Positions 7,091 to 41,295 of a DNA stretch of 64,000 nucleotides are shown here, piece by piece (within the stretch, counting starts at the first letter, position 1; each line of letters opens with the position of its first letter). The stretch is from the IMG/VR virus record IMGVR_UViG_2861079508_000001. One strand, given 5' to 3'. Made by a program: the position numbers and the translations under genes. The DNA comes from a virus. Taxonomy: Duplodnaviria > Heunggongvirae > Uroviricota > Caudoviricetes. The notes beneath the pieces are model-generated. The model saw only the letters and a program-made list of their open reading frames with translations. It was not told the origin of the DNA and did no database searches.

Positions 7091-7145
7091 CCTGCTTCCG
7101 TATATATTTAATAAGTTACTTATTATTTATATATACAGAAGCAGG
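7091..7145. repeat. 55-bp near-perfect palindrome, copy 1
   Basis: CCTGCTTCCGTATATATTTAATAAGTTACTTATTATTTATATATACAGAAGCAGG; identical copy at 41241-41295; centre AATAAGTTACTTATT is itself palindromic and motif-2-like. Confidence 0.6.
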
Positions 7146-7256
7146 CATAACTTGTCGTCTTAGACGCCCAGAAGCTCTACACTTTGAGCCTGTTAAATTG
7201 ATTAAAAACTTATGTGTAAAATAGAACGCATTAGTCAGTAGCAAAGAGATGCAATA

Positions 7257-8024
7257 ATGGACGATTTATCGGTATACGCGAGATCATTGGATAAGGCTAA
7301 ATACTATGTTTACTGTCTCTATGATACAGAAGACAAGATGAAAAGACCGTTTTACATAGGAAAAGGCAAATCGACTCGTTGTCTCGATCACATCAAGTAT
7401 CCCGATGACTCTCCCAAATCCATGCGGATCAAAGAACTTTTGGCTAATAAAAAATTAGGCATAGATATACTTCGTCATGGTATGGATGAAACCACAGCCA
7501 AACTTGTTGAGGCGACATGCATCGACCTTATGGGGGTCGGAGAGCTTACGAATAAGGTACGAGGAAGTGGTTCCATGATGGGCAGAATATCACTGGACGC
7601 CTACCATCACTTAGTGCTGCAAGAGGAAACTGAAATTGCTCCTGAGCACGCCGGTCTTGCCTTCCTGCTAAACAGCACCTACAAGTCAGGAATGTCCGCT
7701 CTGGCATTATATGAGGCTACGCGTGGCGTATGGGCAAAGGTTCCAAGAGACGAGAATCTCAAATATGCCTACGCTACATATGGTGGGCTGATAATGGAAG
7801 TTTATCAGATTGAATGCTGGGTCAAAGCCGGTTCTCAGCAGTACTTTACAAGGGATATAGCTCTTGGCCCCGACACAAAACGTTATGAATTTGTTGGCAG
7901 AATAGCCGATGAGCATATTAGAAAACTGTATGTAGGCAAATTAATCAAGAAGCCACCAAGCTACGGTAGCCCTTTTGTGAAGGTTGGGGTGGTTAGGACT
8001 GAACATAGTGTTAGCGCGGCATAA
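7257..8024 (+). CDS. GIY-YIG family nuclease (possible homing endonuclease)
   Basis: N-terminal VYCLYD-x9-YIGKG-x5-R...H matches the GIY-x(9-11)-YIG motif; gene is inverted relative to all neighbours and preceded by a large non-coding region. Confidence 0.5.
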   Translation: MDDLSVYARSLDKAKYYVYCLYDTEDKMKRPFYIGKGKSTRCLDHIKYPDDSPKSMRIKELLANKKLGIDILRHGMDETTAKLVEATCIDLMGVGELTNKVRGSGSMMGRISLDAYHHLVLQEETEIAPEHAGLAFLLNSTYKSGMSALALYEATRGVWAKVPRDENLKYAYATYGGLIMEVYQIECWVKAGSQQYFTRDIALGPDTKRYEFVGRIADEHIRKLYVGKLIKKPPSYGSPFVKVGVVRTEHSVSAA

Positions 8025-8076
8025 AGCTGACACTGTAGTTATGCATTGGCGCAATGTACGCGCCAATGCATGATTT

Positions 8077-8436
8077 TTAACCTTTCTTCATCAACTCTCG
8101 TTTGATTTCATCGGTACGCATCGTGACATCGGCAGCGGTGATCGCCTCATTCAATTTCACGATGTCCTCGATTTCCTGCGGTGACTTCTCTGCCAGATGG
8201 AAAATGGCTGCTCGAATCACGTCAGAACGAGTGAACTTCTCGAAGCGAGGGATGAACTTCATCATCTCCAGCAGTTCGAAGTATTCGTCCTCCAGTGACA
8301 TTGTGCGGCTTTTAATTTTCTCTTTGCCACGAGTCGGGCGTCCCTGTGGTCTGACTGGTTGGCGCAAAGGAGTTGTGTTCTTAGCCGGTGCATCAGGCTC
8401 TTTGCGCTTTGCTAGGTCACCCATTTTCATGGACAT
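8077..8436 (-). CDS. small partition partner protein (ParG/RHH-like), putative
   Basis: 119-aa protein with basic N-terminal tail and a C-terminal segment (FTRSDVIRAAIFHL) compatible with ribbon-helix-helix; directly downstream of ParA with start/stop overlap at 8436. Confidence 0.4.
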   Translation of the reverse strand: MSMKMGDLAKRKEPDAPAKNTTPLRQPVRPQGRPTRGKEKIKSRTMSLEDEYFELLEMMKFIPRFEKFTRSDVIRAAIFHLAEKSPQEIEDIVKLNEAITAADVTMRTDEIKRELMKKG

Positions 8437-9104
8437 TATTCTTCTTCCTCCAGACTCAACAGATAATCTACAAATTCTTCAAACTCGGCTTCCGCCTTTT
8501 TGTCGCGCTCGCTACCGGTCATTTCAAAGATAGAACGACCAGACTCTTCCGCATCATCATAGACGTTGCGGTTATATAGATTGACTGGCGCAGACTCGAT
8601 GCCAAACGTCTCAACAATCTCTTTAGCCGCCAGAATGCGAGACACTTGTGATGGCAAAGCCGGGCACTGGTTCATGACCGCGCGGACCTTCACTTTATCG
8701 TTTACATTACGAACATTGTCGATAATAGGATCGATGTCACGCAGAGATTTCAAATCACGACGCTTAGGACGAAGCGGGATAATGATAACGTCGGCCATCA
8801 GCATCGCTTGTCGCTGAATTTCGGAGTCAAAGCCACCAGCATCTACCACTACATACTCAGCTCTACCCTGAAGCGATTTTAGGTGCTTAATGATGTCATC
8901 CTGAACGTATGCAAAAGGAATCAGCTCAAGGTCTTCGTTCTGTCGACGGTCTTCACACCAGCTCGTTGTCGTGCGCTGAATATCTATATCGGTGATATAA
9001 ACCTTCTTCTTCTTTTTGACTTTCAGGCAAACGGCAATTTGCTGGGCAACGGTGGATTTGCCAGGCCCGCCCTTTGTGCCGCCAACCACAAAGATCTTGG
9101 TCAT
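8436..9104 (-). CDS. ParA/MinD-family partition ATPase
   Basis: Deviant Walker A GGTKGGPGKST at N-terminus; 222 aa. Confidence 0.7.
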   Translation of the reverse strand: MTKIFVVGGTKGGPGKSTVAQQIAVCLKVKKKKKVYITDIDIQRTTTSWCEDRRQNEDLELIPFAYVQDDIIKHLKSLQGRAEYVVVDAGGFDSEIQRQAMLMADVIIIPLRPKRRDLKSLRDIDPIIDNVRNVNDKVKVRAVMNQCPALPSQVSRILAAKEIVETFGIESAPVNLYNRNVYDDAEESGRSIFEMTGSERDKKAEAEFEEFVDYLLSLEEEE

Positions 9105-9138
9105 TGGAGAGTTCCCTTTGCGTATATAATTATCGTCT

Positions 9139-9155
9139 GAAACAACTTGTTTTCT
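9139..9155. promoter_or_regulatory. motif 1 operator-like palindrome (GAAACAACTTGTTTTCT)
   Basis: Upstream of parA, next to TATATAATTATCG. Confidence 0.5.
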
Positions 9156-9243
9156 TATATGTGATATAGCCTAAATGCCTACGGCTGTGGTGTAAAGGTT
9201 AAATGGTAGGTGCTGCCTTAGAATTTTTAGGCGAGAATCAATG

Positions 9244-9276
9244 GCTGTTAACAAAAAAGGCGACCAAAGTCGCCTG
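9244..9276 (-). terminator. rho-independent terminator after gene 9281..10033
   Basis: Minus-sense AGGCGAC-TTTG-GTCGCCT followed by TTTTTTGTT. Confidence 0.55.
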
Positions 9277-9280
9277 ATTT

Positions 9281-10033
9281 TTAATCTTTTAGGTATAAAC
9301 CTACTGGAGTTCTTGTTTTGCGGGAGATGATAAGTACGATAAATTTCTGAACGTTAACTTGCACTTTGTTTGGGAGCCAAGAGCTTAACTCTGCATCAAG
9401 CAACAATCCTCTGTTCCACGGCAAAAATCCGGTTTCTTTCCCCATCCCGTACTCGCCTAACACATCCTCGAACGTTTCTGTTTTGGCATTGTATATACGC
9501 ACATCGCCGGTTCGCATGAGAGGCCCTGCCCAGATCTTAGCACCAGGAATGGTTTGTGTATCGTCGCAGACTAAATGCTCATACCAATGAAGAAGAAAGA
9601 GATAGGTACGGTGACACAATCCTCGCTGACGACGCTCTCTGACAGTTTCGACACCGGCTACCTGGTAACATTCGATCTCATTACCGTCTTCAACAAAACT
9701 ATATTCACGCAGAGCTATCCTACCAGCGATCGTATTTTTGTTTTCGTCCAGAAGCCCGGACTGGAGCACCTCTTTGATAATCTCTTCTTCAGGGGCATCT
9801 TCATCCGCTCGATCTAAGATGAATTCGCTCAGGTCGCCTTGGTCGCGCGCACCTACAAGTTCCATAGAGACATACAGGCAAATGTCATCTTCTGGTTCAA
9901 TGATTTCAATTTCTGAGATTTTATAGAGGGAGGCTTCATTGATAAGAAAGCCAAAACGAACAACACGAGTCTCCCCTTTATGAGGAAACTCGCTTAGATC
10001 TTTTGAATATGCGCTATCTAGTGTAGGAGCCAT
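9281..10033 (-). CDS. hypothetical protein
   Basis: 250-aa ORF followed on the minus strand by a hairpin plus T-run. Confidence 0.45.
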   Translation of the reverse strand: MAPTLDSAYSKDLSEFPHKGETRVVRFGFLINEASLYKISEIEIIEPEDDICLYVSMELVGARDQGDLSEFILDRADEDAPEEEIIKEVLQSGLLDENKNTIAGRIALREYSFVEDGNEIECYQVAGVETVRERRQRGLCHRTYLFLLHWYEHLVCDDTQTIPGAKIWAGPLMRTGDVRIYNAKTETFEDVLGEYGMGKETGFLPWNRGLLLDAELSSWLPNKVQVNVQKFIVLIISRKTRTPVGLYLKD

Positions 10034-10401
10034 TTTGTAGCAGAATCATCAGCCTTAACCGTGCTGACAATGCTACCATGATTGCGTAAGAAGCGGCGAA
10101 TAGAATGTTCAATAACCTCCGAAAAAGCCTCGATAAAACGAGACAGCTCAGGGTACTGTTTAGCTGGCTTGACTACAAAACGAACACGACCATTCAGGTA
10201 AATTGCTTCAGCTAATGGCTTCACGCTTGCACCAGCGCGCTCAACATCGTCTTTGAAGGTAACGATGAAGCGTGAGTCTTCCGGTTCAATAGCGTCATTA
10301 TTGAGCTTACGTACTTCAAGCTTGTGCTGATTCAGCACATGAGTCTCGATAATACTCGTGCAATCGCGAATAGTTTGTATAGAACGTTTCTCGTTCAGCA
10401 T
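10018..10401 (-). CDS. hypothetical protein
   Basis: 127-aa ORF overlapping downstream gene start; no motifs recognised. Confidence 0.45.
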   Translation of the reverse strand: MLNEKRSIQTIRDCTSIIETHVLNQHKLEVRKLNNDAIEPEDSRFIVTFKDDVERAGASVKPLAEAIYLNGRVRFVVKPAKQYPELSRFIEAFSEVIEHSIRRFLRNHGSIVSTVKADDSATKWLLH

Positions 10402-10625
10402 GTGTCCACCTTAGCCGTTAACACAAGTGTCATTGCGGCACCCCTCTCGGGGTTGAAGGCTACGAGGATGCGTAGCCTGTATGTGCCCACTTACGTGGAT
10501 GCCTAATAAATCTACATCAAATTACTAAATGATTCAACATGAGCTTGAGTGAACAGGCGTGTATATGAGTGAAGATGCCATCTTTAGGATAAAAGGTAAA
10601 CTGAGACCACTCATCAATCATCGAC

Positions 10626-11025: not shown

Positions 11026-11026
11026 A

Positions 11027-11719: not shown

Positions 11720-11732
11720 CCTTGATCTCCTG

Positions 11733-13301: not shown

Positions 13302-16300
13302 TTATTCTTTAGGTGAATTTAACTTCGTTTCAAGCTCCTCAACCCTTTTGGTCAATTGCTGAATATGATGAATGAGTGGTACAACCAAACGCTCATACAT
13401 CACTCCTTCAGCGACCATACCATTTGAGGAAATATCTTCTGGAGAATCATTATTTGTTGGTTCACGCCAATGGACATATTGCGGGGCAATCTCACCAACC
13501 TCTTCAGCAATAAGGCCGTAATACCCCCAATCCTTTCGGTCACCTCGACAAATTGAACGATACCAAACAGGTCTTAATGACAAAAGTTCATCAGCATATC
13601 GATCTTGTAATGTTTCAATATCCTTTTTATAGCGCCTTGAAGAGGTTGAACGCCAAACTGTATTGATACCTGGGTTTGGATCAATGTACATATTGGCACC
13701 GCTAGTAGTTGTGCCAATATCCCATATAGCAAACCCTCCACTACCGCCTGATTTGACAACCAGTGTTTCAGCAATAATATCCAGGTTGCCACTATAGCCT
13801 GTCAGTGATGATCTGCTTGCATAGGAACTTAGAAGGTTTGTTACCTCTGTTTTCGTGTAAGCATTAAGGTTAGCCGCAGTCAAAGTTATATCGGCAGAGC
13901 CATCAAACGCCACACCAGCAATTTTCCTTGCTGTCTGCAATTTTGTGGCGGTTGCGGCATTACCAGTAGTGTTCTGATTACCAGTTGTATTCACACCAGG
14001 GATTGAATCCTTAGCGGTATATACCTGCGCCCACGCTGACCATGCCGCACCTGTGTTATCTCTTCGTGAGCGAATGAAAACTGGCGCATGTGCACCGCTC
14101 GTACCACTCCAGCCAATAAGCAACTCTCCCTCACCAGCAGCACTCGCACCTTTCATGTGCAATACGTTGCCATACATGGTCGGGTAGCTATTGTTGTACG
14201 CCTCGTACATTTGAATGCCAGCAGTGCCTTGAGTAGAGCCGCTTAACGCCGTAACTCGGCCACGAGATACCAATGTATTAATGTTGATATCGCCTGAGCC
14301 ATCAAACTTAACACCATTGATGTTTCTCGCTGTTTGCAACTTCGTAGCTGTTGAAGCATTACCGTTCAAACTACCATTTACGCCACCAGTCACATTTAGT
14401 CCATTACCAATTGATACAGCACCGCTGGTATTATTAATTGTAATAGGTCGCAAACCGTTCCATGAACCTAATGTGTCTCCTGATGCTGTTAGCATGAAAT
14501 ATGTGTTCGATCCATCATTACGGATAAAGAACCCAAAGCTACCGTAAGCAATGCGGAAACCATTTGCATATTTTGAAATGATCTCGCCAGAAGATGTCAA
14601 ACCTCCAGATAATGTACCACCGGTAAGAGGTAATGCACCGACATCAGAGGCTGTTGGTTTGTTTTTCGTGTTATATACTCTTCGCCATCCCGGAGAATAA
14701 TCTGTGCCATTAAATACATAGATAAACTCCGCATTAGTGAGAGCACCAGAGACACTCGTCGTTGTGGCCGTTGTTATACGGATCGTATAATTGTTTGAGC
14801 TACTACCGTTATTAAATACCTCTATAACAGCTCCTGCCAATGGAATAACGCCACAACCAGTTTCACTATTTGGTATGGTTGCACTATTGGCATAGGCCCA
14901 CGCACATCGAGCAATCCATGACTTTGTGTTAAATGCTCCATTATTTTGCAATAACGTCACTAACTGTGCTGTTGTTATTGCTCCGCCATTACTTCCTGTA
15001 GTTAACCAACCAGTAGGAGATGCCGGGCAACCTATATTTGCTGGCGACAAGGAAATATTTGCCGAGCCGTCAAACGACACCCCATTGATAGTACGCGCAG
15101 TCTGCAACTTCGTAGCAGTAGCCGCGTTGCCCGTTGTATTCTGATTACCAGTCGTATTAACACCTGGCAAATTAATATTCGCAGTACCATCAAAGCTCAC
15201 GCCGCCGATAGTTCTTGCCGTCTGAAGTTTTGTAGCAGTTGCAGCATTACCAGTGGTGTTCTGATTACCCGTAGTATTTACACCTGGAAGGTTGATATTT
15301 GCAGAACCGTCGAAACCAACTCCACCGATAGATCTTGCCGTCTGCAATTTCGTTGCTGTACTTGCATTACCATTTAATGTTCCGGTGATCCCACCAGTAA
15401 CAGACAACGGACCTGAAACTGTTCCTCCGGTTGTTGGCAGTGCTCCAATATCTAACGGCGTCGGTTTCTGATGTGTGCTATACATCGTATAAACAACACC
15501 ATCGGTAACGCTGGAAGGCTTACTAGCTGAATATGTTGGCGATGTATAAATAGAAACTGTCGCATTTGCAGTACAATCCCAATGGATATTTACACGAGTC
15601 GCATAATTGCCAATCTCAACGTAAATATCATATGTATCGCCGGATGTGTTGATCCAGGCGAAATTCGTTAATCCGACAGCTGTACGCTTCCACAAAGCAC
15701 CTGTAATCCCTTTGGGGTTTCCATTGCCTGCTCGTAGAACCAGTTCTGAAATGCCTGCCTGATGTGGGGAGCCGACGTTGTAACCAGCGCCACCAATCAA
15801 TGCGATGTAAACGATGGAACTCGCTTGTGGCATGGTAACCGTAGCCAGTTTGAACCACCCTGCCCCGCCAGAGAAAGACATCGTTACTGAATTTAAAGTA
15901 CCAATATCTTTCGGCGTTAATGTGATATCCGCAGTCAGTGCTTTACCGTTAACTTTTCGGTTAGATGGCACCCTGCTATTCGCATTGTCATTGGCTGCTT
16001 TAACTGCTTTTGGCGTTGCGGCCAGCGATTCACTGGTGCTGTCGACAGCACTGCTAAGTTTCACAACACCTTTAGTTGTAAGGCTTGCGTCTTCCATCGC
16101 AACTGCACCGGCAATCTCTTCAGCACGATCAGCAGCAGCTTCCGCACGGGTCGCAGCGGATTCAGCAGCAGTTTTGCTCTGAGATGCTGCCGTCGCACTG
16201 CCTGCCGCCTCTGTTGCTTTCGTGGATGCCGTCGTGGCGCTGCCCTTCGCTGCTGACGCCTGTCTGGTCGCCTCATCTTTTGAAGCAGACGCAGATGATG

Positions 16301-17551: not shown

Positions 17552-20500
17552 TTACAGAAGGCCAATTCTTACTCGTAGGACGTTGTTATCGTCATAAACG
17601 TCAATCCGCTGACCATTTATGACCAGTCGCCCATTACCCCCGCTATTACCGTTGATCTCAAGCGTTCCATTTTTGCCGAACCGCCATCCAGATCTACCGC
17701 TAACAAAATTGGTAGATTGCAGATCGCCTACTTTTGCATTGGTGATTGTGCCATCCTTGATATACGCACCATTCATATAGGCGATACTGTTTTCGATAAC
17801 AAATGGCGTGGTGATCTTCCCGTTAACAGAGTTGACCAAACCAAACCTGTCAGCCTGCACCAAAAACTGAGAAAGGCCAGTGGTGTCGATACCAAGCGCA
17901 ATACCAGCAACATACTTCTGCCCTCCGCTCGTTGAAGTTTCCATTTTCAACGTCCACGCGGTTGACACTTTTTTGTTGGTATCAGCAATAGCTGTTGCCT
18001 GCTGTTGAATTGTCGCGGTATTTCCATCCACCTCTGCTTTCAGAGTATCGATTCGCCCACTCAGAGCATTATCTGCCTGCGTTCTCGCTGTCGTTTCAGT
18101 TGTTACCGCCGCGGAAATGTTGGCTGCCGTTTGAGACTCTAAGTTTGTGATTTGAGTCGCCAATGCAGCATCTTGCTCTGTACGCGTTTTCGTTTCGGTT
18201 GCTACAGCCGCTTTAATATCCTCTTTGTATTGAGAGGTCAGCTTGGTGATCTGAGACGACAACGCCGAGTCAGCATCAGTTCGAGCCTGCGTTTCAACTG
18301 CAACGGCCGCACTAATATCTTTCGCTGTCTGTGCTTTTAAACTTGAAACCTCTTTTGTTAAAGCGGTATCACCATCAGCACGAGCCGTTGTTTCTCTGGC
18401 AAGAGATGCCTCGAGATCATTAGCTTTTGCTGTAAGAGACGAAATCTGAGTGGACAATGCACTATCGGCATCAGTCCTTGCCTTTGTCTCTACAGCAACC
18501 GCTGCGGCAATATCAGTTCCGGTTTGTGCTCGCAGGCTGTTAATTTCTCGTGAGAGCGCCTGGTCAGCACTTGCTCTGGCCTCCTGCTCCTGAGTGATGG
18601 CAGCGGATATATCACCGTCAACCTTTGACTGAAGCTGGTTTATTTGTTTGGCTAACGCAGAGTCCCCGCTTGCTCGGGCCTCCTGCTCACTACGTATTGC
18701 AGCAGAAATATCATCATCAACCTTTGCCTGAAGTTGGGTGATCTGGCTTGCCAGAGCCGAATCTTCCGTTGCTCGGGCTTCTTGCTCTTCCTTAATAGCT
18801 GCGACGATATCGTTGCTTACTTTCGACTCAAGCTGAGTGATCTGTGTCGTCAGAGCTTCATCGGCAGATGTGCGAGCCTCCTGCTCTGTACTAATCGCCG
18901 CGCTGATATCTCCTTCAAACTTAGATTGCAGCTGAGTGACACGCTTTGCCAACGCTTCATCGCCATCGGCACGAGCGGTGGACTCTTCCAGAATACTGGC
19001 CTTAATGTCTTCGCCAATTTCTACGCGAATTTCCTCAACCTTCGTGGCCATTGCAGACATATCATCAGCAAAGGTTTTCTGTGTTGTTGCGATCTTCGCG
19101 TTATTGACCATCTGCTTGTGCTGGTCTTCATCTTGACGAAGAGCTAGGTCAATATTTGTTTTGGCTAACGCCTCAATGTTCGTAGTCAGTTCTGCACTGG
19201 CACGATCGACCTCTGCAACCGTCTTTTTCATTTCTTCAACGGCAGCGGAGCTTTCCTCTACCGTTGACTGCAACACTTCCAGTTGTTTAGCGTTTGCAGC
19301 ATCGCCTTCAACACGAGCCTCGCTTTCCTTAGCAATAAGAGCCGCCGCTTCATCTCTTGCAGCCTTTATTGCCTCGACTGTATTAGCGAGAGCTTTATCG
19401 TGTTCAGATACGGTGTTTTCGATTTCAACAATTGCAGCATCAGTAGCATCAATTTTTTCAAACGCTTCATTGACCTTGTCGATCGTTGCCGAAACCTCAC
19501 CTTTAAGCTCGGTTTGTGCGTTCTCCAAAGCATCGCTACGCTCGTTGAATTTTATTTCAAAACCCGCGAGGTTATCGCTGAACTGCTTATCTAATTCAGC
19601 TATATCTTCCTTAACGTCGTTTACCGACCCCTCCAAAGATTCGACGCTCTGGTTGATATGCTCATTTAACTCGTCAACTGCTTCTTGAGAGGCTTTGCTG
19701 TTGATGTCCTCAAGCAGAGCCTGACCAAGCTCGGAAGATGTAATTTTGCCAGCCAGGAACGACAGTACATCGCGAGTTGTCGCCTCTGTACCCAAGTTTG
19801 AGTTCGGAGGGCTTAACATACCTCGCTTGTTCGATGCTCGAACCCAGTAATACCACGTTTCGCTATCCCCAAGACCAGCATGTGTAAAGGTGGTGCTTGC
19901 AGACTCTGCGATCAGTTTCGCCGTATCCAGATTGTTGGTCTGGGATGCGTAAACATTAATGTGATCAAGGTCTACCGAATCTGGATTAACCCAATTCAGT
20001 ATCACATTACGATAGTCTCCAACGGCCGTTAATGACGTTGGTGCATCCGGCGGTGTCATTGTGCCCAGCACCTGATAAACGGTACTGATAATTTCTGTTT
20101 TTTTACCGTTGAATGAAACCGCATACAGTTGGAAGTCGTAGCGTCCATTCTCCGCGACATTAACGATTTCGTATTGTTCTTCGGTTACACGCGCCGATTG
20201 CCAGTTCGATACATTGTTTTCATCAGAACGTCGCCAACTGATCCAATACTCTGGAGATTTCCCTTCCCATGTTGCAGTCAGTTTTACTGACAGGTTGCCC
20301 GGGCTTGAGAGGTAAGTCCCTTCAGTGATTTGCAAATTAGACGGCTTGGAGTAAGTCGGGTCCAATACCGTCGTATTCTGCGGGATAAGCGTTGCACCAT
20401 TGTCGATCGCCTCATATTTAGACGGATTGTTTTCAACAGCGGTGATGTCAAAGCTACCCGACGTTTCCCCCTGAGCGATGTTAACGATGCGAACGCGCAT

Positions 20501-24808: not shown

Positions 24809-27800
24809 TTAGTTACGTTGAGTGTTTGGGTTGAGAGATCCGCCAGGGCGTTTCTCTTGAGCGATAGTCTCAAGCGCGATTGCTTTCATCCGTTGAGCGG
24901 CATTGTTCCATATGCTTTCTGTATCGCCGGATTCAGTTGTGCTACCGTCACTATGGACGTTGATCTCAATTGATACCGGAGAAAGAACATTTCCTCCTCC
25001 ACTCATACCATCGGTACTGAGCGTTACAGGGATTGTTCGACCATCAGGCAATGGAACATACGCCTCATTCATATCGCCTTCCCCAAACAACGCCAATTGA
25101 GGTGAGTTGGCGATACCGCCTTTCTGGTATGCCCGGAGCGGGATCACGCCGTCTTTTCCGAATATGCCACCATTTGCAAACTTCGGAATTGCAGGAATAC
25201 CATTCGTGCCATCGGCAGCAGAACTGGTCAGATTGTTGAACCCGGAAGTTGAGCCAGAAGAACCGGACATCAATCCATCGAATCCACCACCAGCCCATAC
25301 TGAAACCAAACCAGATGCAACTGTCGCGCCGAAATTCAACCACTTATTACCAGAGCCGGAAGCATTAGCTCCAAGCATTGCAAACGCGGCAGACAGAGCG
25401 CCGGTAACAGAGCTGAGGTTCTGCATCGAGAAGATGGAGTCCTTCACTGCTTTTGTCTCAGCATCTTTGGCTTCGGTGCTATCAAATAGCCCCGATACCC
25501 AGCTACCAATCGCATTTGTTGCTGTGCCAATTGCGCTGGTGGTCTGCTGTGTTGTTTGCCCCAATCCAGTTACCGAACTGGACGTCTCCTTCGTGGCTTC
25601 TCCTACCGACTTGTCGCCATTAACAGTGTTGCCCATTCGTACACCTTGATTGGCAACGGCAGAAGCAACTCCAGTGAGCAAATTGCCACTCTGTGAACTA
25701 CCAGCTGCGGTGGTTCCCATCCCCAACATGTTCATTAGAGGCAGCGTGATTTGCGACTTCACGACCATATTGGTGATATCTTTCAAAATGGACTGAGATA
25801 GGCTGGAGAAGCTCATCTTCCCGTTAATAACGAAATCAGTCAGGACATCAGTTAAGCCACTAAACAAATCAGTCCAGGTGCTTTCGATCTGCTCTGCCAA
25901 GTTTTCGTATTCCAGTGCCAACTTCTGCGTCGCAGTCCCCGTCTCTTTAATAAGCGCGGTATTGCCAGCAGCAATCAGTTGATTGATTTTCTTTGTATAA
26001 AGCGCCACAACTTTAGGATCAGACGCCTTATCACGAAGTTCTATCAACGCTTTGAGATTGCGGTTGTAGGTGTCTTCGAAATCGGCAACTTTCTCTTCGC
26101 GAGACGGCGTATAGCCAGCACTAATAATGGAATCCGCCTCCGGTGCCCAAGTGGAGATCATCTGCTCAACATTGCGGCGATTAAACATCTCACGATATTC
26201 AGGTGTCGCATTTTTGAGGTCTTCAAGACGTTTTTTCGCCTTGTCGATCATCTCTTGAGTGATGAACTCGTTAGGAACCGCATTAGCCAAATCTGTCAGC
26301 GATTTCGTTGTATCGCGAAGAGACTGATCAAACGATACCGTAGCCTTAGAGCTTTCACCCATTTGCCCCATAAGCTGATCGGCTTTGTCCAGAGCCTTCT
26401 GGTATCCGGCTGCCAGTTTCTGTTGCGCTGCCTGTTCCTTCTTGGCCGCACGCTGCGAGGCGTTAGCTGATCGTTGGGCTGCTTTCTCGGCAGCTGCTGC
26501 ATCCTGTTCACGAGCTTTAGTTAGTGCAGCAATGGCTGCGGCACGCTCTTCATCGCTCATTTTCTCCAGAGAGCTGGCGCTGGATGCTTTCTGCAAATTA
26601 AGCTGCGTCTTGAGTTGTTTAGGCCCAATAATCGGCTTACCTTCGAAGTCCATCATCGGAGTGCCGTCAGGCAAAGTACGCTGATAAGTCGCAGAATTCA
26701 TCTGGTTTCGCATATATTGCGCCAACGCCTTCTGAGCAGCTTTATCAGTTGTACCTAACCCAAGAACAGTCCCCTGGTTTGACATTACGCCCTTACCAGT
26801 TTTGGCCGCGTTATCTCTCTCGAACTCTGCCTGAGTAAGTTCCTGAGCAACGGCTTCCAAATGCTCCTGATAACCACGAATACTGCCTTGCAGTTTCTGG
26901 ATTTGCTCGGTATTGCCATCCTTTTTGGCTTTTTCAAGCTGATCATTAAGAGTCGCGATTTGCTTCTCGGTCGCATTCTTACGAGAAGAAAGTGAATCAA
27001 CCAGTTTTTGCGCAGGCTCCAGATAGCTTTTGTTTACCGTTTCACGTAACGGTGCCAATAGCTTGTTCTTTTCGTCATCTGAAAGTGAACCGTCATCATT
27101 GATTTTCTGGATCTTATCCAGAGCCTCCTGCCGGGCTTTCACGAATGTTGCCGCGAAAATCTGGTTTTCCGCTCGAATTTTCTCAATCTGAGATTCGGCA
27201 GCCTCTTTAGCCAAACGCTTTGCTACAGCGCCGTCACCAAGAGCTATCGTGCCGGTTATCTTTTGATACTCTTCCTGATTTTTTTTCAGGCGTGCTTCGA
27301 TGTCAGCCTTCGACTCTTTGTGAGTAATAACACCGGCAGAGTTAGATACGTAATTAACACCCTCACCAGTTTTTAATGCTCGTTGATCAGCAAGAATCTG
27401 CTTTTCGAGCTTTTCTGCGCGGTCGGCCATTTGTGCACGTTTGGCCGCCGTCATCGCCTCTGGTATTTTCCTAATCTCGTCAACGACCTTTGAAGTTTCG
27501 CTGCGGAGCATGGTCATGTACGTGATTAGGCCAGCAACAGCTACAGTGGCAACTGTAAATGCTGCCCCTATAGGGTTTGCTGCAATGAACGCCGTTAATC
27601 CAGCAAAAGCGCCTTTAAGCCCCGTAATCGCCCCACGGATGGCGAAAATAAGAGAGGGGATCGGAGCCAGCCCCATACGTGCCGCACGATTGAATCGGGT
27701 TACTGCTGTAGCGCCGAGGTTAAATGGAGTCTGTATGGCGGTCGCCATCGTGGCAAAGGTGCTAACCATCTGGCTGCCTGCGCCAACTACCCCCATGATC

Positions 27801-28547
27801 CCTGCTCGCATCAGTTTGAACGCAACCATCGCGGCCACGACCTTACCGAGATTAATTACCAGCTCTTGGTTCTTTGCTAACCATTGAGCAAGCTGACGCA
27901 ACCCATCAATTGCCGTCGTTAACCCCGAGCCTAAAGAATTGGCAAACGAAATCCCTTCGGCGCTATTCATGATTGAAGCCAGTTCTTTCATCCCCTTCGA
28001 TAGAGAATCCAGATATCCGGCCTGACCAACCCGATCAGCAAATAACGTGAATGACGTCTGAAGTTGCGCCAGCGCACCTGTGTAGGTTTGCATCATGTCT
28101 TTCGCTGCGTTCTCATTCTCCGCACGCAGACCAACAAACATCAGAGACAACGCCTGTTTTGCCTCAACCGTACCGCTGGCAACGGCTTTAGTCAGTTCCC
28201 CCATAGTGATGCCTGCGGCGTCTGCCATTGCCTGCATCGCGTTAGGAACGGCTTCACCTAATTGCTGACGTAGCTCTTCCATTGACACAACGCCCTTACC
28301 GGACATCTGCTGAACGGCCACAGCCGCACGTTTCAACAGCTCACTATCACCACCAAAACGAGCAACGGAGTCCACCAGCGCCTTCAGAGAACCATCGGTT
28401 GGATCTAAGCCAGCAGAACGAAACTTCACGAAGGAATCTGTTAACGCCTGCATCGCGAACGGCGCATTTTGCGCCATGTCTACGATGTACTTCATATCAT
28501 CAGCGGCAGCCTGGCCAGGGTTGGACTTCTCCTTATTCAACCCTCGA
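24809..28547 (-). pseudogene. tape measure protein, 3' portion (gene interrupted by IS insertion)
   Basis: Long mostly helical ORF (1243 aa from an internal TTG) downstream of chaperone genes; reading frame is continuous with the 29858..30714 fragment once the IS and one TSD copy are removed. Confidence 0.7.
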
Positions 28548-28601
28548 TGAACCGCCCCGGGAATCCTGGAGACTAAACTCCCTGAGAAAGAGGTAAACAG
28601 G

Positions 28602-28928
28602 ATGACTAAAAATACTCGTTTTTCCCCCGAAGTCCGTCAGAGGGCGATTCGTATGGTTCTGGAAAGTCAGGGCGAATATGACTCACAGTGGGCGGCAATT
28701 TGTTCCATTGCCCCAAAGATTGGCTGTACACCGGAGACTCTGCGTGTCTGGGTACGCCAGCATGAGCGGGATACCGGAGGCGGTGATGGCGGGCTCACCA
28801 CCGCTGAACGTCAGCGTCTGAAAGAGCTGGAACGTGAAAATCGTGAACTGCGCCGCAGTAACGATATCCTTCGCCAGGCTTCCGCTTATTTTGCGAAGGC
28901 GGAGTTCGACCGCCTCTGGAAAAAATGA
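28602..28928 (+). CDS. IS3-family transposase OrfA (HTH/leucine-zipper part)
   Basis: 108 aa [23 protein letters not shown]...; I recognise this as the IS629/IS3-group OrfA; ends at an A-run slippery site. Confidence 0.8.
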
Positions 28929-29815
28929 TGCCACTGCTGGATAAGCTGCGTGAGCAGTACGGGGTCGGACCGCTATGCAGCGAACTGCATATTGCCCCGT
29001 CAACGTATTACCACTGTCAGCAACAGCGACATCATCCGGATAAACGCAGTGCCCGTGCGCAGCGCGATGACTGGCTGAAGAAAGAGATACAGCGCGTATA
29101 CGATGAAAATCATCAGGTGTACGGTGTGCGTAAAGTCTGGCGTCAGTTGTTACGGGAAGGTATCAGAGTGGCCAGATGCACTGTGGCACGTCTCATGGCG
29201 GTTATGGGACTTGCCGGTGTTCTCCGGGGTAAAAAGGTCCGTACGACCATCAGCCGGAAAGCCGTTGCCGCAGGCGACCGCGTAAACCGTCAGTTCGTGG
29301 CAGAACGACCTGACCAGCTGTGGGTGGCTGATTTTACTTACGTCAGCACATGGCGGGGCTTCGTCTATGTGGCGTTCATCATTGATGTGTTTGCCGGATA
29401 CATCGTGGGGTGGCGGGTCTCATCGTCTATGGAAACGACATTCGTGCTGGATGCTCTGGAGCAGGCGTTATGGGCCCGTCAACCGTCCGGCACAGTCCAT
29501 CACAGTGATAAAGGTTCTCAGTATGTATCGCTGGCCTACACACAGCGGCTTAAGGAAGCCGGATTACTGGCATCAACAGGAAGTACTGGTGACTCGTATG
29601 ACAACGCGATGGCGGAGAGCATCAATGGCCTTTACAAAGCGGAGGTAATACACCGTAAGAGCTGGAAAAACCGGACAGAAGTGGAGCTGGCCACACTCAC
29701 GTGGGTGGACTGGTATAACAATCGACGATTGCTGGAAAGGCTGGGCCATATCCCACCGGCAGAAGCAGAAAAAGCTTATTATGCTTCCATCGGAAACGAT
29801 GATCTGGCAGCCTGA
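28925..29815 (+). CDS. IS3-family transposase OrfB (DDE catalytic part)
   Basis: 296 aa overlapping orfA in the -1 frame at AAAAAATGA; integrase-type DDE core (e.g. [16 protein letters not shown]). Confidence 0.8.
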
Positions 29816-29857
29816 GTTCACAGATAAAACACTCTCCAGGAAACCCGGGGCGGTTCA

Positions 29858-30714
29858 CGAAGCATCACCCGCATACGTTCCATTTCGGCCGCAGCTTCAA
29901 CAATAGGCTTCTGCCACCCAAACATGATGTCAGTAACCGTTCTGGCTGCATCTCCGATCTCGCCAAGCAGGAAAATGTTGCCACGAAGGCCAGAGAACAT
30001 ACCTCCTTCGTTACTTTTACCGCTATGGCCAGAAGCGCCGCTACGCCGCCCGCTACCACCATCGCCACTTCCAGATGTACGAACGCGTACCGGCTTGCTA
30101 ATCAGTTGCTGACGTCCGATAACTTCGTCCATCTGCTCACGAACCTTTTTCAGTCCCTCGGCAGCCTGACTCGTTGTGACACCCCAATTACTGAGTCGCT
30201 TCGTCGTGGTATTAAGGCGCGTATTCATGCCACTCACGGACGCAGAGGCTTCTTTGACCTCCGTACCAAAGCGGCTTGCGCTTTTGCTTGCATAGGTCGC
30301 CCAATCAGAGAAATCATTTAGCTCTGATTGCACTTTACGTAATGACGCGGTGAGTTTATCTACTGAAGAAGTTGTCGTATCGACGCGCTCAATCAGGGCT
30401 TTAAGACCAGAATTGAGGCTGGTGATGTTGCCACGCATTTTACGCGTAGCATCTGAAGCAAGCTCAAAACCGGCAGCTACATCCTGTAGTTTATCTGCTG
30501 TAGAATCGAGCTTGCTTTCCAGAACGCCAATGATACGGGCGACCGAACCCAAAGAGCGTTCAAAGGTTTGGATTTTTTGAGCAGGCTTTGTTACCTGCTC
30601 ACCAAATCGAGTAAGCAGTTTCCCCGCACGATCGATTGACGCTGTAAACTGTTTGTCTTCCAGCGACAGGATAAACTCTACGTTTTGTGACATTCCCTTG
30701 TCATCCTCTGCCAA
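29858..30714 (-). pseudogene. tape measure protein, 5' portion (truncated by IS; last 13 codons of ORF are IS-derived)
   Basis: ORF 29818..30714 reads from TMP start into the IS right end; codon 285 ends in the CGA target duplication. Confidence 0.7.
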
Positions 30715-36699: not shown

Positions 36700-36724
36700 C
36701 TATCAATTCCCTTTGATTTAGATG

Positions 36725-37612: not shown

Positions 37613-37633
37613 AAAAATTCCCTTTGTTACTTA

Positions 37634-39208
37634 TCACTCGTTCTCTTGAGTAGATGAGTCCCCATTCCCTCGGGGTTGATCTTGCCCGCTTTCTTGGGCT
37701 GCACCACGATCATAAGTAAGTACTGACTTATTTTCAAGGGTATTTAGATCATTTTTTGGCGGAAAATTCAAGAGATCTTTATCAAATTCCTTTTTCATCG
37801 CCTCAGTAATGTTCGGGAAAATCTTCTCAATAAGCATTTCCATCTGGTGACGACGTACAGAGTCCGGTGCCTGAAGTAATGACAGTTTCTCGGCAACAGA
37901 AAATTCATCTGTAAGGCCACGAATATCGAAACTTTCTGGATACGCAATTAAAGAGTGGTCTTCGTCCAGATCTACCCCCATCCATTTCGCAACCAGTAGC
38001 ATGATTTGGCGTTCAGCCCTTTCCAGACGCTCTGCTTTTGTGACAAGCAAGCTATTTACACGCTGGAAGTCATACATTTTTGCGGCACCAGATGAGTTAT
38101 CAATTCCCTGTGCGTTGTCCTGCTTCGTTCGCTCACCAGCGACACCAACTGAATGGTAGATTTCGTTAATCACCGTCTTAATCGTAGTGATGATCATCTG
38201 AGCTTGTTTCGGGTCTGGTGACAAATAAAACGGCTGGTTTCCACCTTCAGAATCGTAGGTGAAGACTCGCTTTGTGCCCATTTCAAGCACTTTAGTGTGG
38301 TTTTCATCACCAGGTAAAAGCGACTGTACTGGTATAGCCAACTGGCTAAATGTCTGATCCTGAATAATGGCATCAAGGTTTGACAGATAGTTTGCAACCG
38401 CACGATCAAGATAAGCGATATCATCGATCAACGATGGGCTGAAATACGGTGATTCACTTTCTCCAATACAATCAACAGGAAACACAGGAACTACGCTGAG
38501 ATTATGCTCACCGCTATCCTCTAAAATAACTTTTGCCTGACGGCGACCTGCTCCACCAGCGCCCTTCTTCACTTCCTCACGGAACAGATACCACTCGTTT
38601 TGTGTCCACAGACGATAACGTTGGTATTCCTGACCTGTAGAAGTAAAAGGATCTGCGTCATCACGAGCGACTTCCACAATTAACGCCCACAACATATTCC
38701 CGTCGTCGTCCCATGCCACATCCAGCATTTGCTGAGGTGAAATCCAGTAGGCGTAGGCGCGAGCATCTTTCTTTTTCTCGTCAGCTACTGACTCAACATC
38801 ACCACTCATCGTGCTATCGACAACAACCCATATGCGACCGTAAATAGACGACTGCAAATCAATAGCGGCCATAAATGAGTCAATAGAGGCATTCTGGCGA
38901 GTCGCACGTTTCCAGAAATTGCGGATCTGCTCTGGTGCCTCTTCGATATTTCTATGAATGTCTTCTTTAAAGAGATATTTGTTGATGAGGTTTACCACCT
39001 CACGAGTGTGGTTGAAGCGATAAGCACGCTCAACTCGCTCCTTAAACTCCTGATCTCCCTCTTTAAAGTAACGAAAGATATTGTCTGTAAACCAACCACG
39101 CCCGCCAGCGTAAGTGCTGGCGAGGAAGTCCCAATGTTCTTTTTTCTTTTCGTATTCCGGGTGGCGTCGCGCCACCAGATCCTTAATTTGTTTGTCGTTC
39201 AATTCCAT
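37634..39208 (-). CDS. portal protein
   Basis: 524 aa directly downstream of terminase large subunit; acidic C-terminus. Confidence 0.6.
   Translation of the reverse strand: MELNDKQIKDLVARRHPEYEKKKEHWDFLASTYAGGRGWFTDNIFRYFKEGDQEFKERVERAYRFNHTREVVNLINKYLFKEDIHRNIEEAPEQIRNFWKRATRQNASIDSFMAAIDLQSSIYGRIWVVVDSTMSGDVESVADEKKKDARAYAYWISPQQMLDVAWDDDGNMLWALIVEVARDDADPFTSTGQEYQRYRLWTQNEWYLFREEVKKGAGGAGRRQAKVILEDSGEHNLSVVPVFPVDCIGESESPYFSPSLIDDIAYLDRAVANYLSNLDAIIQDQTFSQLAIPVQSLLPGDENHTKVLEMGTKRVFTYDSEGGNQPFYLSPDPKQAQMIITTIKTVINEIYHSVGVAGERTKQDNAQGIDNSSGAAKMYDFQRVNSLLVTKAERLERAERQIMLLVAKWMGVDLDEDHSLIAYPESFDIRGLTDEFSVAEKLSLLQAPDSVRRHQMEMLIEKIFPNITEAMKKEFDKDLLNFPPKNDLNTLENKSVLTYDRGAAQESGQDQPRGNGDSSTQENE
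37711..37735 (-). promoter_or_regulatory. motif 2 element (inside 3' end of portal ORF)
   Basis: CATAAGTAAGTACTGACTTATTTTC upstream of scaffold gene. Confidence 0.4.
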
Positions 39209-39220
39209 TTGAATAACCTT

Positions 39221-39242
39221 AGATAATTACCTACCTATCGAG
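39221..39242 (-). promoter_or_regulatory. motif 2 element
   Basis: AGATAATTACCTACCTATCGAG between terminase and portal genes. Confidence 0.4.
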
Positions 39243-40491
39243 AACCACCAAGAATAACACGGTTTTTGACTGGATACCTACGATGTACTGGATAGCCCAA
39301 TGCGTCTGCACTATGCTCAATGCCACCTGTCTTATCCATATCTCGTGTTCCAGGCTTGTAGATGACTTTTTCCAGTGAATCAATCAAATGCTTGCACTTC
39401 GGATCGATATACAACCGGATATCTCCAGATGCGGTCATCAGCATTCGGTTAACAGCATTAACACGATCCGCAATTGGCGGGTGCTTTTTCGAATAATCGA
39501 CACGTAAGAATCCCTTCTCTTTGAATATGTCGACGTCAGACTCCCCGCGAGCATGTTGGCGATAAGCACCTGCCGGATCTGGAAATACCGTTATCTGTGA
39601 TTTCCAGCGCCAGAAGCGTCTCTCAAGCTCATCACAAACCTCTGCCGTGTTAGAGGAAAAGAGCACCAATTCATCAATTGCCCATAGCTCACCATTTGGC
39701 TGAGGTTGCAAAATTACTGAAGACATCGGGTCAATGTTGAAGTCCTGCCCTACCCATATAGGCAACCGAGGGTTGAACTGAAGCGGTTTTACATGCACGT
39801 TACGATCGAACGGGTAGTAAACGCGCCCGGACATGTTCTCAAAGCTCGCCAGGTACTCCTGAGCGAACGATTTCGGGTCCATATCGTTCTTAGCAGCTTC
39901 AATTTCCGCCGTAGGCACAAACGGAGAATCGGCAGTTACAAACTGCCAGCTCTTCCACTGTCCCTTTCTTTGCAGCTCTACGTTCTGGCCTATAGTCCAC
40001 AGTTTGTGAAATTCCGAGAAACCTTTTGGCGTACCAATGATAAGTGCACCGCCGCGTGTCGATGAAAGAGTAGGTCGTAACACCTTGTACCAGGTGTCAG
40101 CCTTCATATCCTGAAATTCATCAAGCACTACAAAATGCAACGCTACGCCGCGCAGAGTGTCAGGCTTATCAGCACCTTTGAGGGCGATCTCCGAACCGTT
40201 CTTCAACACGATTGTCATCGTGGTGTCGTTCTTTTTCCTAACCCACTTACGAGGCAGAACTTCCTGTAGATCGTCCCACAAAATCTGGCGAGCCATCTGG
40301 TAAGTAGGAGCGACATACCAGACCCTTTGCTTTTTTTCCTTTGCCGCCGCACGAATAATAGTGGAGATCGACAACCGGGATTTTCCCCAGCGTCGACCAG
40401 CACAAACAACTTTAAATCGATGCGGAGACTGGAAGACTTTCATCTGTCCAGAATGCAGTTGCACAAGACTGAGCGAGGACGGGATTGCCAT
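39235..40491 (-). CDS. terminase large subunit
   Basis: Walker A VVCAGRRWGKS and Walker B FVVLDEFQD in N-terminal ATPase domain; C-terminal nuclease-like half. Confidence 0.8.
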   Translation of the reverse strand: MAIPSSLSLVQLHSGQMKVFQSPHRFKVVCAGRRWGKSRLSISTIIRAAAKEKKQRVWYVAPTYQMARQILWDDLQEVLPRKWVRKKNDTTMTIVLKNGSEIALKGADKPDTLRGVALHFVVLDEFQDMKADTWYKVLRPTLSSTRGGALIIGTPKGFSEFHKLWTIGQNVELQRKGQWKSWQFVTADSPFVPTAEIEAAKNDMDPKSFAQEYLASFENMSGRVYYPFDRNVHVKPLQFNPRLPIWVGQDFNIDPMSSVILQPQPNGELWAIDELVLFSSNTAEVCDELERRFWRWKSQITVFPDPAGAYRQHARGESDVDIFKEKGFLRVDYSKKHPPIADRVNAVNRMLMTASGDIRLYIDPKCKHLIDSLEKVIYKPGTRDMDKTGGIEHSADALGYPVHRRYPVKNRVILGGSR

Positions 40492-41123
40492 TATTCGTCC
40501 TCCCCTTCACTTCCATCATCTGTCGCATCAAATTCGCTTAGAGCTTCTTCTTCCAACGTCTCAAGCAATTCGTCATCGATGATTTCAGGCTCGTCGTCTT
40601 CCTGACGTAATTTCGCCACCTGGGAAGGCGTAAGCTCACCAAATACCAGGTTCGGAATTTCTTCCTCGTCATTTTCCGCATGATCCATGCCCAATGCTTT
40701 GGACGAAACTTCAAAGCATTTTGCAAGGGTATTACTGGCTCTCTGTAAGCTCTTGAGAGAATCCTCAATCGCCCCTAAAGGCTTACCCTCACGTTTGGCC
40801 GTAGTGACTTCGACCATCACCATCTGCCCCAACGCATACGCCCAGCCGTCATAACGTGTACGACGTTCTTCTATCTTTTCCGCACGGGCTTTAGCGCGAA
40901 GCTCTGCGTCAGATTTAAGAGACTCACGAACCATCTTCCCAACAGAGTCCGCGCCTTTCTCTAATCCTCGCTTTTTGAAATGTCTGGAGAGTGTTTCACG
41001 ACGAATGCCGTACTCTTCCTCCAGCTTTGAGAGTGTATATTCGCCTGACGTCCATTTGGCTTCAGCTTCGGCCCACTCCGCTGGTGTCAGGCGAGTTTTT
41101 ACCTCGTCTTTTTCGACCGTCAT
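40491..41123 (-). CDS. terminase small subunit (putative)
   Basis: 210 aa with N-terminal HTH-like YTLSKLEEEYGIRRETLSRHFKKRG and acidic C-terminal tail; stop overlaps TerL start. Confidence 0.5.
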   Translation of the reverse strand: MTVEKDEVKTRLTPAEWAEAEAKWTSGEYTLSKLEEEYGIRRETLSRHFKKRGLEKGADSVGKMVRESLKSDAELRAKARAEKIEERRTRYDGWAYALGQMVMVEVTTAKREGKPLGAIEDSLKSLQRASNTLAKCFEVSSKALGMDHAENDEEEIPNLVFGELTPSQVAKLRQEDDEPEIIDDELLETLEEEALSEFDATDDGSEGEDE

Positions 41124-41163
41124 AGATCCCTCTAAAACACACAGAGCGCGTCCATGCGCTCTA

Positions 41164-41204
41164 AAACAACTTGTTTACTGCATTTTCTAACCAACTTGTT
41201 TTCT
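41164..41204. promoter_or_regulatory. two motif 1 copies (AAACAACTTGTTTA; CCAACTTGTTTTCT)
   Basis: In the intergenic region upstream of the small terminase gene and downstream of the wHTH gene. Confidence 0.45.
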
Positions 41205-41240
41205 GGGTTGTTTAATTAGGTCTGGGCATGTCTTATTAAG

Positions 41241-41295
41241 CCTGCTTCCGTATATATTTAATAAGTTACTTATTATTTATATATACAGAAGCAGG
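41241..41295. repeat. 55-bp near-perfect palindrome, copy 2
   Basis: Identical to 7091-7145; lies in the non-coding region just upstream of the small terminase gene. Confidence 0.6.

Follow-up and report, generated by a model that had tools for sequence, protein, structure and literature searches.

The stretch of DNA analysed here, hereafter the window, comprises 64,000 nucleotides (nt) of the IMG/VR virus record IMGVR_UViG_2861079508_000001, and the element in question is a 55-nt palindromic repeat that occupies two of its intergenic gaps, called S1 and S2. The window is an SSU5-like phage-plasmid, 99% identical to the Escherichia phages CMS-2020a and PhiR41_1, 84-88% identical to Salmonella phage SSU5, and about 80% identical to Klebsiella relatives. 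The stretch compared with the E. coli plasmid NZ_CP080257, 40800-41750, encloses S2 and is 100% identical to that plasmid; used as a query, it matched 837 plasmid records, 62 of them from Yersinia pestis. Nearly all of the genes are on the minus strand of the window, and this strand, the direction of most transcription, is referred to below as the sense strand.

S1 is flanked on one side by a partition operon, consisting of parA and the gene of a 119-amino-acid (aa) protein, together with a variable cargo gene, and on the other side by the genes of a 249-aa protein, a DnaB-like helicase, and a primase. The cargo gene of the window encodes a LEM-3-type GIY-YIG protein and is on the opposite strand to its neighbors. 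The region from the partition operon to S1 (~7146-8076) is a hypervariable cargo slot that holds the GIY-YIG gene in the window, a RelE/ParE-type toxin gene in Cyrano (according to the annotation of its record), and unrelated genes in SSU5 and other relatives. It is bounded at one end by an ordinary perfect hairpin at ~8040-8066 and at the other by an outer motif of S1, described below.

S2 starts 24 nt past the stop codon (41320-41322, minus strand) of an 88-aa gene and is located 118 nt upstream of the start (41123, minus strand) of the gene in the position of terS, the small terminase gene. The latter encodes a 210-aa DNA-binding protein (PHROG 867), lies downstream of S2, and is followed by the gene of the large terminase subunit, TerL. 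The 88-aa gene is the last of a block that otherwise encodes two ParB_N proteins along with ABC-type ATPases. No Pfam family matches the 88-aa gene, which belongs to PHROG 900, a group of unknown function. The gene context given in a preliminary description of this DNA (replication genes, inverted GIY-YIG gene, terS) was mostly right, the exception being a "wHTH" label on the 88-aa gene, which could not be verified. The synteny of the block upstream of S2 (41596-44511, minus strand) is conserved, and its products include two ParB-type proteins, namely a Spo0J-like one of 232 aa with an N-domain and a helix-turn-helix (HTH) and a ParB_N protein of 233 aa. The block also encodes an ABC-type ATPase and a protein of 296 aa, which is labeled an ABC ATP-binding subunit in PHROGs, yet has no Pfam hit. 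This block is far from the classical parA operon.

The 55-mer CCTGCTTCCGTATATATTTAATAAGTTACTTATTATTTATATATACAGAAGCAGG occurs exactly, and on the same strand, at 7091-7145 (S1) and 41241-41295 (S2), as the preliminary description had reported, and no third match with up to three mismatches exists in the window. None is expected by chance, and 100 dinucleotide-preserving shuffles gave 0 matches. The repeat is indeed a palindrome, albeit an imperfect one: 14-nt arms, CCTGCTTCCGTATA and TATACAGAAGCAGG, enclose a 27-nt AT-rich center with a 3-nt asymmetry, and the arms clash at a single position, which is C/A when read as the plus strand and a U.G pair when read as the minus strand. S1 and S2 are identical across exactly the 55 nt of the palindrome and unrelated directly outside it; because the identity ends exactly at the ends of the palindrome, it indicates a gene conversion that would be confined to the repeat.

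Each 55-nt copy is the core of a composite of about 100 nt (~7067-7174 at S1 and ~41219-41317 at S2), in which an outer motif (GGTCTGGG/CCCAGACC), a variable spacer of 13-26 nt, a 14-nt arm, and the AT-rich center are followed by their mirror image. The parts found in the window are the following.

7067-7073, no strand assigned: S1 outer motif, GTTCTGG (CCAGAAC on the minus strand), 17 nt from the arm.
7080-7090, minus strand: S1 T-rich tail, TCTTTTAAAAG, which is transcribed after the hairpin and, in many relatives, pairs with the A-rich opposite side.
7091-7145, no strand assigned: S1 core, with arms at 7091-7104 and 7132-7145 and the center at 7105-7131; orthologous to PhiR41_1 75115-75169 and to the S1 copy of all relatives.
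7167-7174, no strand assigned: S1 outer motif of the other side, CCCAGAAG, 21 nt from the arm; the hypervariable cargo region starts just past it.
41219-41226, no strand assigned: S2 outer motif, GGTCTGGG, 14 nt from the arm.
41241-41295, no strand assigned: S2 core, the same 55 nt as S1; orthologous to PhiR41_1 45582-45636, to the junction of the SSU5 record, and to the copy in Y. pestis pMT1.
41310-41317, no strand assigned: S2 outer motif, CCCAGACC, the inverted partner of 41219-41226, 14 nt from the arm.

The outer motif is a conserved part of the element. In oriented alignments, the inverted motif (G/T)TCTGGG upstream and CCCAGAC downstream was found 13-26 nt beyond the arms on both sides of every copy, while the sequence of the spacer between arm and motif was not conserved. 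A CCAGA-type motif is present at this distance from 6/6 arms of PhiR41_1, against a background of 4% per search window (P ~4e-9). Across the genome, CCCAGAC shows no overall enrichment (10 copies) and is enriched only locally, beside the arms. When 26 distinct S1 contexts were aligned, the upstream flanks proved unrelated, with the TCTGG-type motif still present in most of them; the cargo slot therefore ends at the element. Folded as a whole, the composite gives a quasi-palindrome of 105-125 nt whose energy is similar on the two strands; for the S2 composite (41219-41317), this energy is -50 to -60 kcal/mol in relatives.

The two copies of the window, both real, turned out not to be the full count, since complete relatives such as PhiR41_1 have a third. 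Scanning IMG/VR with a sequence pattern yielded at least 120 instances of 51-57 nt, a range due mostly to TA-repeat slippage, and comparison of their flanks with the complete PhiR41_1 genome placed all of them at three orthologous intergenic sites, S1, S2, and S3, located at 75.1, 45.6, and 13.4 kb of PhiR41_1, respectively. S3 follows a putative DNA methylase gene in a nucleotide-metabolism/methylase block and is beyond the 64-kb window. A profile search of the PhiR41_1 genome found no units besides the six that make up these three copies. In SSU5, PhiR41_1, and the more distant plasmids pfekpn2511-2 and Moellerella pNX2019-MW3, all three sites sit between co-directional gene blocks.

The exact 55-mer of the window is the commonest allele; in genomes of the E. 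coli type, it accounts for 15 S1 copies and 12 S2 copies. Those of the Salmonella type carry other alleles at S1 and S2, which share lineage-specific center bases, and the S2 copy of Y. pestis pMT1 is identical to that of SSU5. When loci were sampled through the conserved flanks instead of the arms, canonical arms were found at 42/53 S2 loci and 50/69 S1 loci; the flank-anchored pattern for S3 was too unspecific and returned mostly unrelated contigs. The preliminary description had taken the duplicates as the sign of a functional site and had regarded absence of the palindrome from close relatives as counting against it. The opposite of such an absence was seen, as the element is present in all of the relatives examined, and the suggestion of a functional site is judged to have been correct.

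The first line of evidence on function comes from the pairing of the arms. As RNA, the minus strand of the two window copies folds with energies of -30.2 and -30.8 kcal/mol (z ~-8.6 relative to shuffled controls), and the plus strand with -23 kcal/mol (z -6.4). Across 71 distinct contexts, the arm positions comprise 930 Watson-Crick pairs, 57 G.U pairs, and 7 mismatches when read on the sense strand, and 930 Watson-Crick pairs, 3 G.U pairs, and 61 mismatches when read on the antisense strand. Arms are paired in about 99% of cells in sets of 46-71 distinct contexts; the 14 arm pairs are essentially always paired, the variation is one-sided, and one full compensatory change was found. Directly beyond the arms, the next four positions pair in 59-80% of cases, with covariation between AU and GC at three of the four, and this A-rich/T-rich extension of the stem is the pattern typical of bidirectional terminators. 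The first 10 nt past the hairpin contain, in the sense direction, on average 6.0 T at S1 (4.3 on the antisense strand) and 5.8 T at S3. The sequence that follows the stem is UCUUUUAAAA at S1, and CUUAAUAAG (sense) and UCUUUAAAUA (antisense) at S2, and orthologues in other clades have 8-14 U.

The second line of evidence comes from divergent lineages. In the plasmid pfekpn2511-2 and in Moellerella, Morganella, and Xenorhabdus, elements occupy orthologous sites with arms and outer motifs that are lineage-specific but shared among the sites of one genome. Related elements are present at all three sites in the two complete plasmids, pfekpn2511-2 of K. pneumoniae and pNX2019-MW3 of Moellerella. The former contains ATATAGGAGCCAGG exactly three times, once per orthologous site, and its S2 is a hairpin followed by CTCTCTTTTTAGTGTTTTTTGTGTGTTTTTT. 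S2 of pfekpn2511-2 and of the K. michiganensis-type and P0082-type genomes has homologous arms (CCTGATTCTGTAT...) that pair via G.U on the sense strand only and are followed by 8-14 T. At S1 and S3 of pfekpn2511-2 the left arm has been lost, and a canonical GC hairpin with a T-tract comes directly after the remaining unit; at S1, two units converge on one shared terminator.

Moellerella pNX2019-MW3 has arms (CCTAGCTCCCATA/TATGGGAGCTAGG) whose sequence differs from that of the other lineages, with complementarity kept, and its outer motif is GCGGA(A/T). Its S1 and S3 consist of unit pairs around 50-85 nt of AT-rich DNA, and only the right unit is present at S2. Three extra solo units, which share 20-32 identical nucleotides, occupy further intergenic gaps, including one between tail genes, and at 92.7 kb a canonical GC hairpin with a T-tract stands directly beside the surviving unit. 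The Moellerella arm core occurs nine times, and 8/9 occurrences have the outer motif (P ~3e-9), including solo units without a pairing partner. The ninth, an exact 13-nt copy at position 69488 inside the nrdA coding sequence, lacks the outer motif and is probably a chance match. In Morganella, the arm sequence of S1 is arranged head-to-head, ATGGGAGCA-N12-TGCTCCCAT, and forms a 9-bp GC hairpin that is followed by TTTCTTTC. Xenorhabdus and two other lineages have kept one unit, the other arm having decayed. A GGRAGCnnGG core beside AT-rich DNA is recognizable in pfekpn, Moellerella, Morganella, Xenorhabdus, and the other lineages compared.

We tentatively propose that these palindromes act as hairpins that terminate or insulate transcription between modules, and that they additionally bear a motif for a putative factor; we put the likelihood of this reading slightly below even. 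Positions, architecture, conservation, pairing pattern, and terminator-type orthologues are shown by the comparisons above, and what is inferred is the factor itself and termination in the window lineage. Termination or insulation is proposed as the core function because the sites are at module boundaries, because orthologous sites are textbook terminators, and because ordinary terminators are found where the hairpin has been lost. The preliminary description had listed a bidirectional terminator among its candidates, and this is the best supported of them. At S1, the gap separates the partition operon and cargo slot from the 249-aa/helicase/primase block; at S2, the ParB-like/ABC-ATPase block from terS and the virion genes; the gap at S3 comes after the nucleotide-metabolism/methylase block. 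When transcribed, the 14-nt GC-containing arms and the AT-rich center would form a long hairpin flanked by the A-rich/T-rich extension of the stem. This hairpin would most likely be an intrinsic, largely bidirectional terminator or insulator that blocks read-through between gene blocks, so that, for instance, transcription in the plasmid state would not reach the operons for lytic replication and the virion.

The second part of the proposal concerns recognition. Each half-element carries a bipartite signature, made of the arm core GGAAGCAGG (GGRAGCnnGG across lineages) and the outer motif CCCAGAC 13-26 nt away, which is uniform across the sites of one genome and differs between lineages; it may be read by an element-encoded factor, which could, for instance, make termination stronger, prevent it, or lift it. 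Such a factor, acting in trans, and selection for its binding signature are suggested because the signature is genome-uniform and lineage-specific and is kept in solo half-units that are unable to form a hairpin. Gene conversion alone cannot maintain the outer motif, because the spacers between arm and outer motif have not been homogenized. Recognition in trans would thus be the simplest explanation for a signature kept in this way.

The resemblance to intrinsic bidirectional terminators includes the intergenic position at operon ends, the GC-containing stem base, the A-rich 5' and T-rich 3' extension of the stem, the tolerance of G.U pairs on the transcribed strand, and the canonical form of the orthologous sites in sister clades. 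Several observations weigh against it. The sense tail of S2 is poor, with 3.3 T in 10 nt (CTTAATAAG), the T-tract of the window lineage is short and interrupted (TCTTTT), and a consensus promoter/terminator scan calls neither window copy a terminator, so that by classical criteria these are weak terminators. The stem, which measures about 25 bp and is AT-rich in its long apical half, is also atypical for a terminator. In addition, a plain terminator leaves three features unexplained: the conservation of the arm core at three sites and between genera, the outer motif, and the survival of half-units without a hairpin. One of the solo units is inside the tail-gene cluster of Moellerella, and solo units are oriented with transcription in pfekpn2511-2 and against it in Moellerella. 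Finally, the G.U bias stems from few independent substitution events, and a C-to-T mutation bias on the sense strand, where the GC skew is positive, may contribute to it.

Taken more broadly, the element would be a dispersed cis-acting site read by a co-evolving, element-encoded factor, with a bipartite half-unit (the GGRAGCnnGG arm and the outer motif) present at 3-6 loci around the circle and with transcription insulation coupled to a plasmid-prophage function. This broader view is possible, but we would sooner doubt it than rely on it. Candidates for the function coupled in this way are lysogenic silencing by a "stoperator"-like roadblock, regulated antitermination into the late operon, or ParB-type loading and partition.

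Some of the same observations are accommodated by a different explanation, in which the units are dispersed double-stranded DNA-binding sites for an element-encoded protein, bound singly or in pairs, and the potential to form a hairpin is incidental. The unit would then be the AT-rich stretch with the arm and the outer motif, serving either in centromere-like or ParB-type loading, as in N15 and RK2 KorB, or as a repressor roadblock, as the stoperators of L5 do. The sites would adjoin terminators either because the complexes must be protected from passing transcription or because RNA polymerase is stopped by the complexes themselves. This explanation fits the finding that arms and outer motifs are identical across the sites of a genome and vary between lineages while the intervening spacers differ, that solo units retain both motifs, and that the arrangement is variable (tail-to-tail, head-to-head, or solo). 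It is also in line with the fairly even spread around the circle (three loci in PhiR41_1 and six in Moellerella), with the gene of the Spo0J-like protein (N-domain plus HTH) about 2.5 kb upstream of S2 in a synteny conserved in all lineages, with the location of S1 downstream of the parA operon, and with the retention of S1 in plasmids that gave no match to the 88-aa gene or to the 5' end of terS.

ParB-type sites, such as the N15 sopC-like sites, the RK2 KorB operators, and P1 parS with its box A and box B around an IHF site, share with the element the several inverted-repeat copies around a plasmid-prophage, the two motif types per half-site around an AT-rich center, and the presence of ParB-family genes. 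The element differs in its long and variable arm spacing, and the parA promoter region has another palindrome. The stoperators of mycobacteriophage L5 (cluster A) and the C1 operators of the phage-plasmid P1 are likewise asymmetric units scattered over a temperate phage genome in short intergenic gaps, solo or in inverted pairs. L5 stoperators and dispersed P1 C1 operators stop or silence transcription in the lysogen. The units described here differ from these in being bipartite with variable spacing and in having an orientation that is not consistently tied to transcription.

The DNA-binding-site explanation is considered unlikely, if still a serious one. Arm pairs span 51-57 nt in the main group and their spacing ranges from about 25 to 85 nt between lineages, and the distance from arm to outer motif ranges from 13 to 44 nt, both of which are awkward for a rigid dimer. 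The S2 arms of the pfekpn clade differ at 3-4/10 positions as DNA, yet they pair as sense-strand RNA, and the G.U bias is on the sense strand. Furthermore, T-tracts and terminators are consistently associated with the units, no binding protein is linked to the element, and the classical parA promoter has a different palindrome, AAACAAnTTGTTT.

A role as lytic replication origins appears improbable. According to this explanation, inverted initiator boxes would surround an AT-rich unwinding region, three times per genome, by analogy with oriS/oriL of herpesviruses and the two origins of SPP1, and the 249-aa protein would be the initiator or helicase loader. The inverted conserved boxes around a center of about 90% AT are suggestive, both S1 and S2 rank near the top in AT content among the 40-nt windows of PhiR41_1, and S1 is directly upstream of the operon for the 249-aa protein, the DnaB-like helicase, and the primase; the 249-aa family is confined to these elements. 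However, the structural model of this protein, although confident, gave a fold match within noise, and Foldseek found nothing. The GC skew shows no inflection at the sites, although its profile is dominated by gene orientation and is uninformative about origins. Two sites of the pfekpn clade have lost one box and half of the AT-rich center, the Morganella boxes are head-to-head without an AT-rich center between them, and the T-tracts are left unexplained.

A selfish or neutral repeat family of the REP/BIME or REPIN-like kind, with no role for the phage-plasmid, is given very little probability as well. Such repeats would have been spread or homogenized by gene conversion or by template switching at hairpins, and their resemblance to terminators would be a by-product of intergenic location. 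The identity of S1 and S2 over the exact 55 nt, which points to gene conversion confined to the repeat, and the three extra solo copies of Moellerella at new intergenic positions agree with this origin. Paired inverted units around an AT-rich center resemble BIME and REPIN, which are short imperfect palindromic units, single or in inverted pairs around a spacer, intergenic at gene 3' ends, genome-specific, and homogenized. The element differs from them in having 3-6 loci per genome at conserved orthologous positions and a sequence unrelated to the E. coli REP consensus. In addition, the three sites are occupied even in lineages with flank identities of only 64-80%, which points to old copies that have been retained; the outer motif is set off from the arm by a non-homologous spacer, beyond what gene conversion can maintain; and no RAYT-type transposase was noticed in the annotations of the genomes compared.

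The candidate favored in the preliminary description, a pac or cos packaging signal recognized via the copy next to terS, did not hold up and is now very improbable indeed. As in phage pac and cos sites, one copy is just upstream of the gene in the small-terminase position, 118 nt from its start codon. Furthermore, the linear SSU5 record (JQ965645) starts and ends inside S2, which is split 37|18 of 55 nt, and the Cyrano record is broken at the same place. However, only one of the three equivalent copies is near terS, and cutting at all three would divide a 108-kb genome into thirds. In addition, S1 is kept in a 61-kb E. ludwigii plasmid and in a 163-kb conjugative E. coli plasmid without a match to the 88-aa gene or to the 5' end of terS. 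S2, the copy next to terS, is a hairpin-plus-T-tract terminator in sister clades. TerL is of the T4 type and belongs to the Terminase_6 family, with nearest relatives that are T1-, Jersey-, and T5-like; T1-, Jersey-, and T5-like phages are not known to use lambda-type cos sites. As to the deposited records, the break in SSU5 is off-center and is explained equally well by an assembly break at a repeated palindrome, and the paper describing Cyrano contains no end mapping, so its record may simply have been laid out to match SSU5.

The remaining candidates can be set aside briefly. A target of the GIY-YIG nuclease, also proposed in the preliminary description, is discarded because the nuclease gene is variable cargo: SSU5 has an unrelated gene in its place (BLASTP E = 5.5) and retains the palindrome at S1, and no GIY-YIG gene adjoins S2 or S3. 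Nor did the suggestion of a recombination site fare better, as 0/481 matching plasmids have an S1xS2 junction. A tyrosine-recombinase core with the 6-8 bp spacer of lox/dif is rejected on the distance between the arms: they are 23-29 nt apart in the main group, and in Moellerella as much as 85 nt. A protelomerase tel site, being a single perfect palindrome of a linear plasmid, is rejected on the circularity of the plasmids and the presence of three copies. Promoters were considered too: no sigma-70-like promoter was called by the consensus scan in or beside either copy, and promoter-like readings made by eye (an extended -10, a T4-late TATAAATA box, and an ECF-like GGAAGC-N17-CCCAGA) have inconsistent spacing and orientation between sites and lineages. 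Resemblances to lox arms (CTTCGTATA), to the half-sites of F sopC (TGGGACC), and to the boxA of rrn and lambda are too short or too inconsistent to serve as evidence.

Other features of the window were recorded along the way. The palindrome AAACAAnTTGTTT has 15 matches with at most one mismatch, against 0.5 expected: at 6210, upstream of parA; at 9140, upstream of the helicase gene; at 41164 and 41189, between S2 and terS; and at 11 positions clustered between 50307 and 62994. The copies that adjoin S2 are kept in all of the lineages examined except Moellerella and its close relatives, and the motif looks like the operator of a global regulator. Between these two operator-like motifs and the ribosome-binding site, a GC-rich hairpin (41142-41163, minus strand) followed by TGTGTTTTAG is present in the leader of the terS operon; it comes just after the motifs and may be an attenuator or an antitermination target for the late genes.

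An IS3-family insertion sequence occupies 28548-29857, with 25-nt inverted repeats at 28548-28572 and 29833-29857 and with orfA (28602-28928) and orfB (28925-29815) both on the plus strand. A scan of the whole window with Rfam 15, at the gathering threshold, found nothing at either copy of the palindrome, and its sole match is the ALIL frameshift pseudoknot of this insertion sequence (RF01497, 120 bits, 28883-28999). The insertion interrupts a long open reading frame of the minus strand (24809-28540 and 29818-30714), a J-like tail host-specificity gene that is intact in PhiR41_1; because this gene is split, the phage-plasmid copy represented by the window may be incapable of producing infectious particles. 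Four tandem 99-nt repeats (62-72% identical) and several repeats spaced at 120 nt are found at 18539-18934 and 13870-15371 in long coding regions of the minus strand, and presumably correspond to repeated domains of tail or tape-measure proteins.

A full-text search of the literature on SSU5-type phages found no description of these palindromes and no mapping of virion ends. In the literature searched, the three-copy boundary element of SSU5-like phage-plasmids, Y. pestis pMT1 included, is therefore previously undescribed. Its novel parts would be the lineage-specific recognition signature placed on boundary hairpins of the terminator type and the concerted evolution of copies at three fixed positions.

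Phage-plasmids of the SSU5-like group, which includes the virulence plasmid pMT1 of Y. pestis, are widespread in clinical Enterobacterales. If the broader view is true, a dispersed, factor-read system would exist in phage-plasmids of the pHCM2, pMT1, and Klebsiella types, pHCM2 of Salmonella Typhi being, according to the literature, a member of the SSU5-like group. In practical terms, the 14-nt arms offer a compact marker with which to find and type members of the group, and the repeated palindrome would account for the assemblies and deposited records that break at this sequence. The element also bears on the variable cargo slot that adjoins S1. For the biology of these phage-plasmids, the three-site boundary element would be a testable handle on how the virion and lytic-replication genes are silenced while the plasmid-maintenance and cargo genes are expressed.

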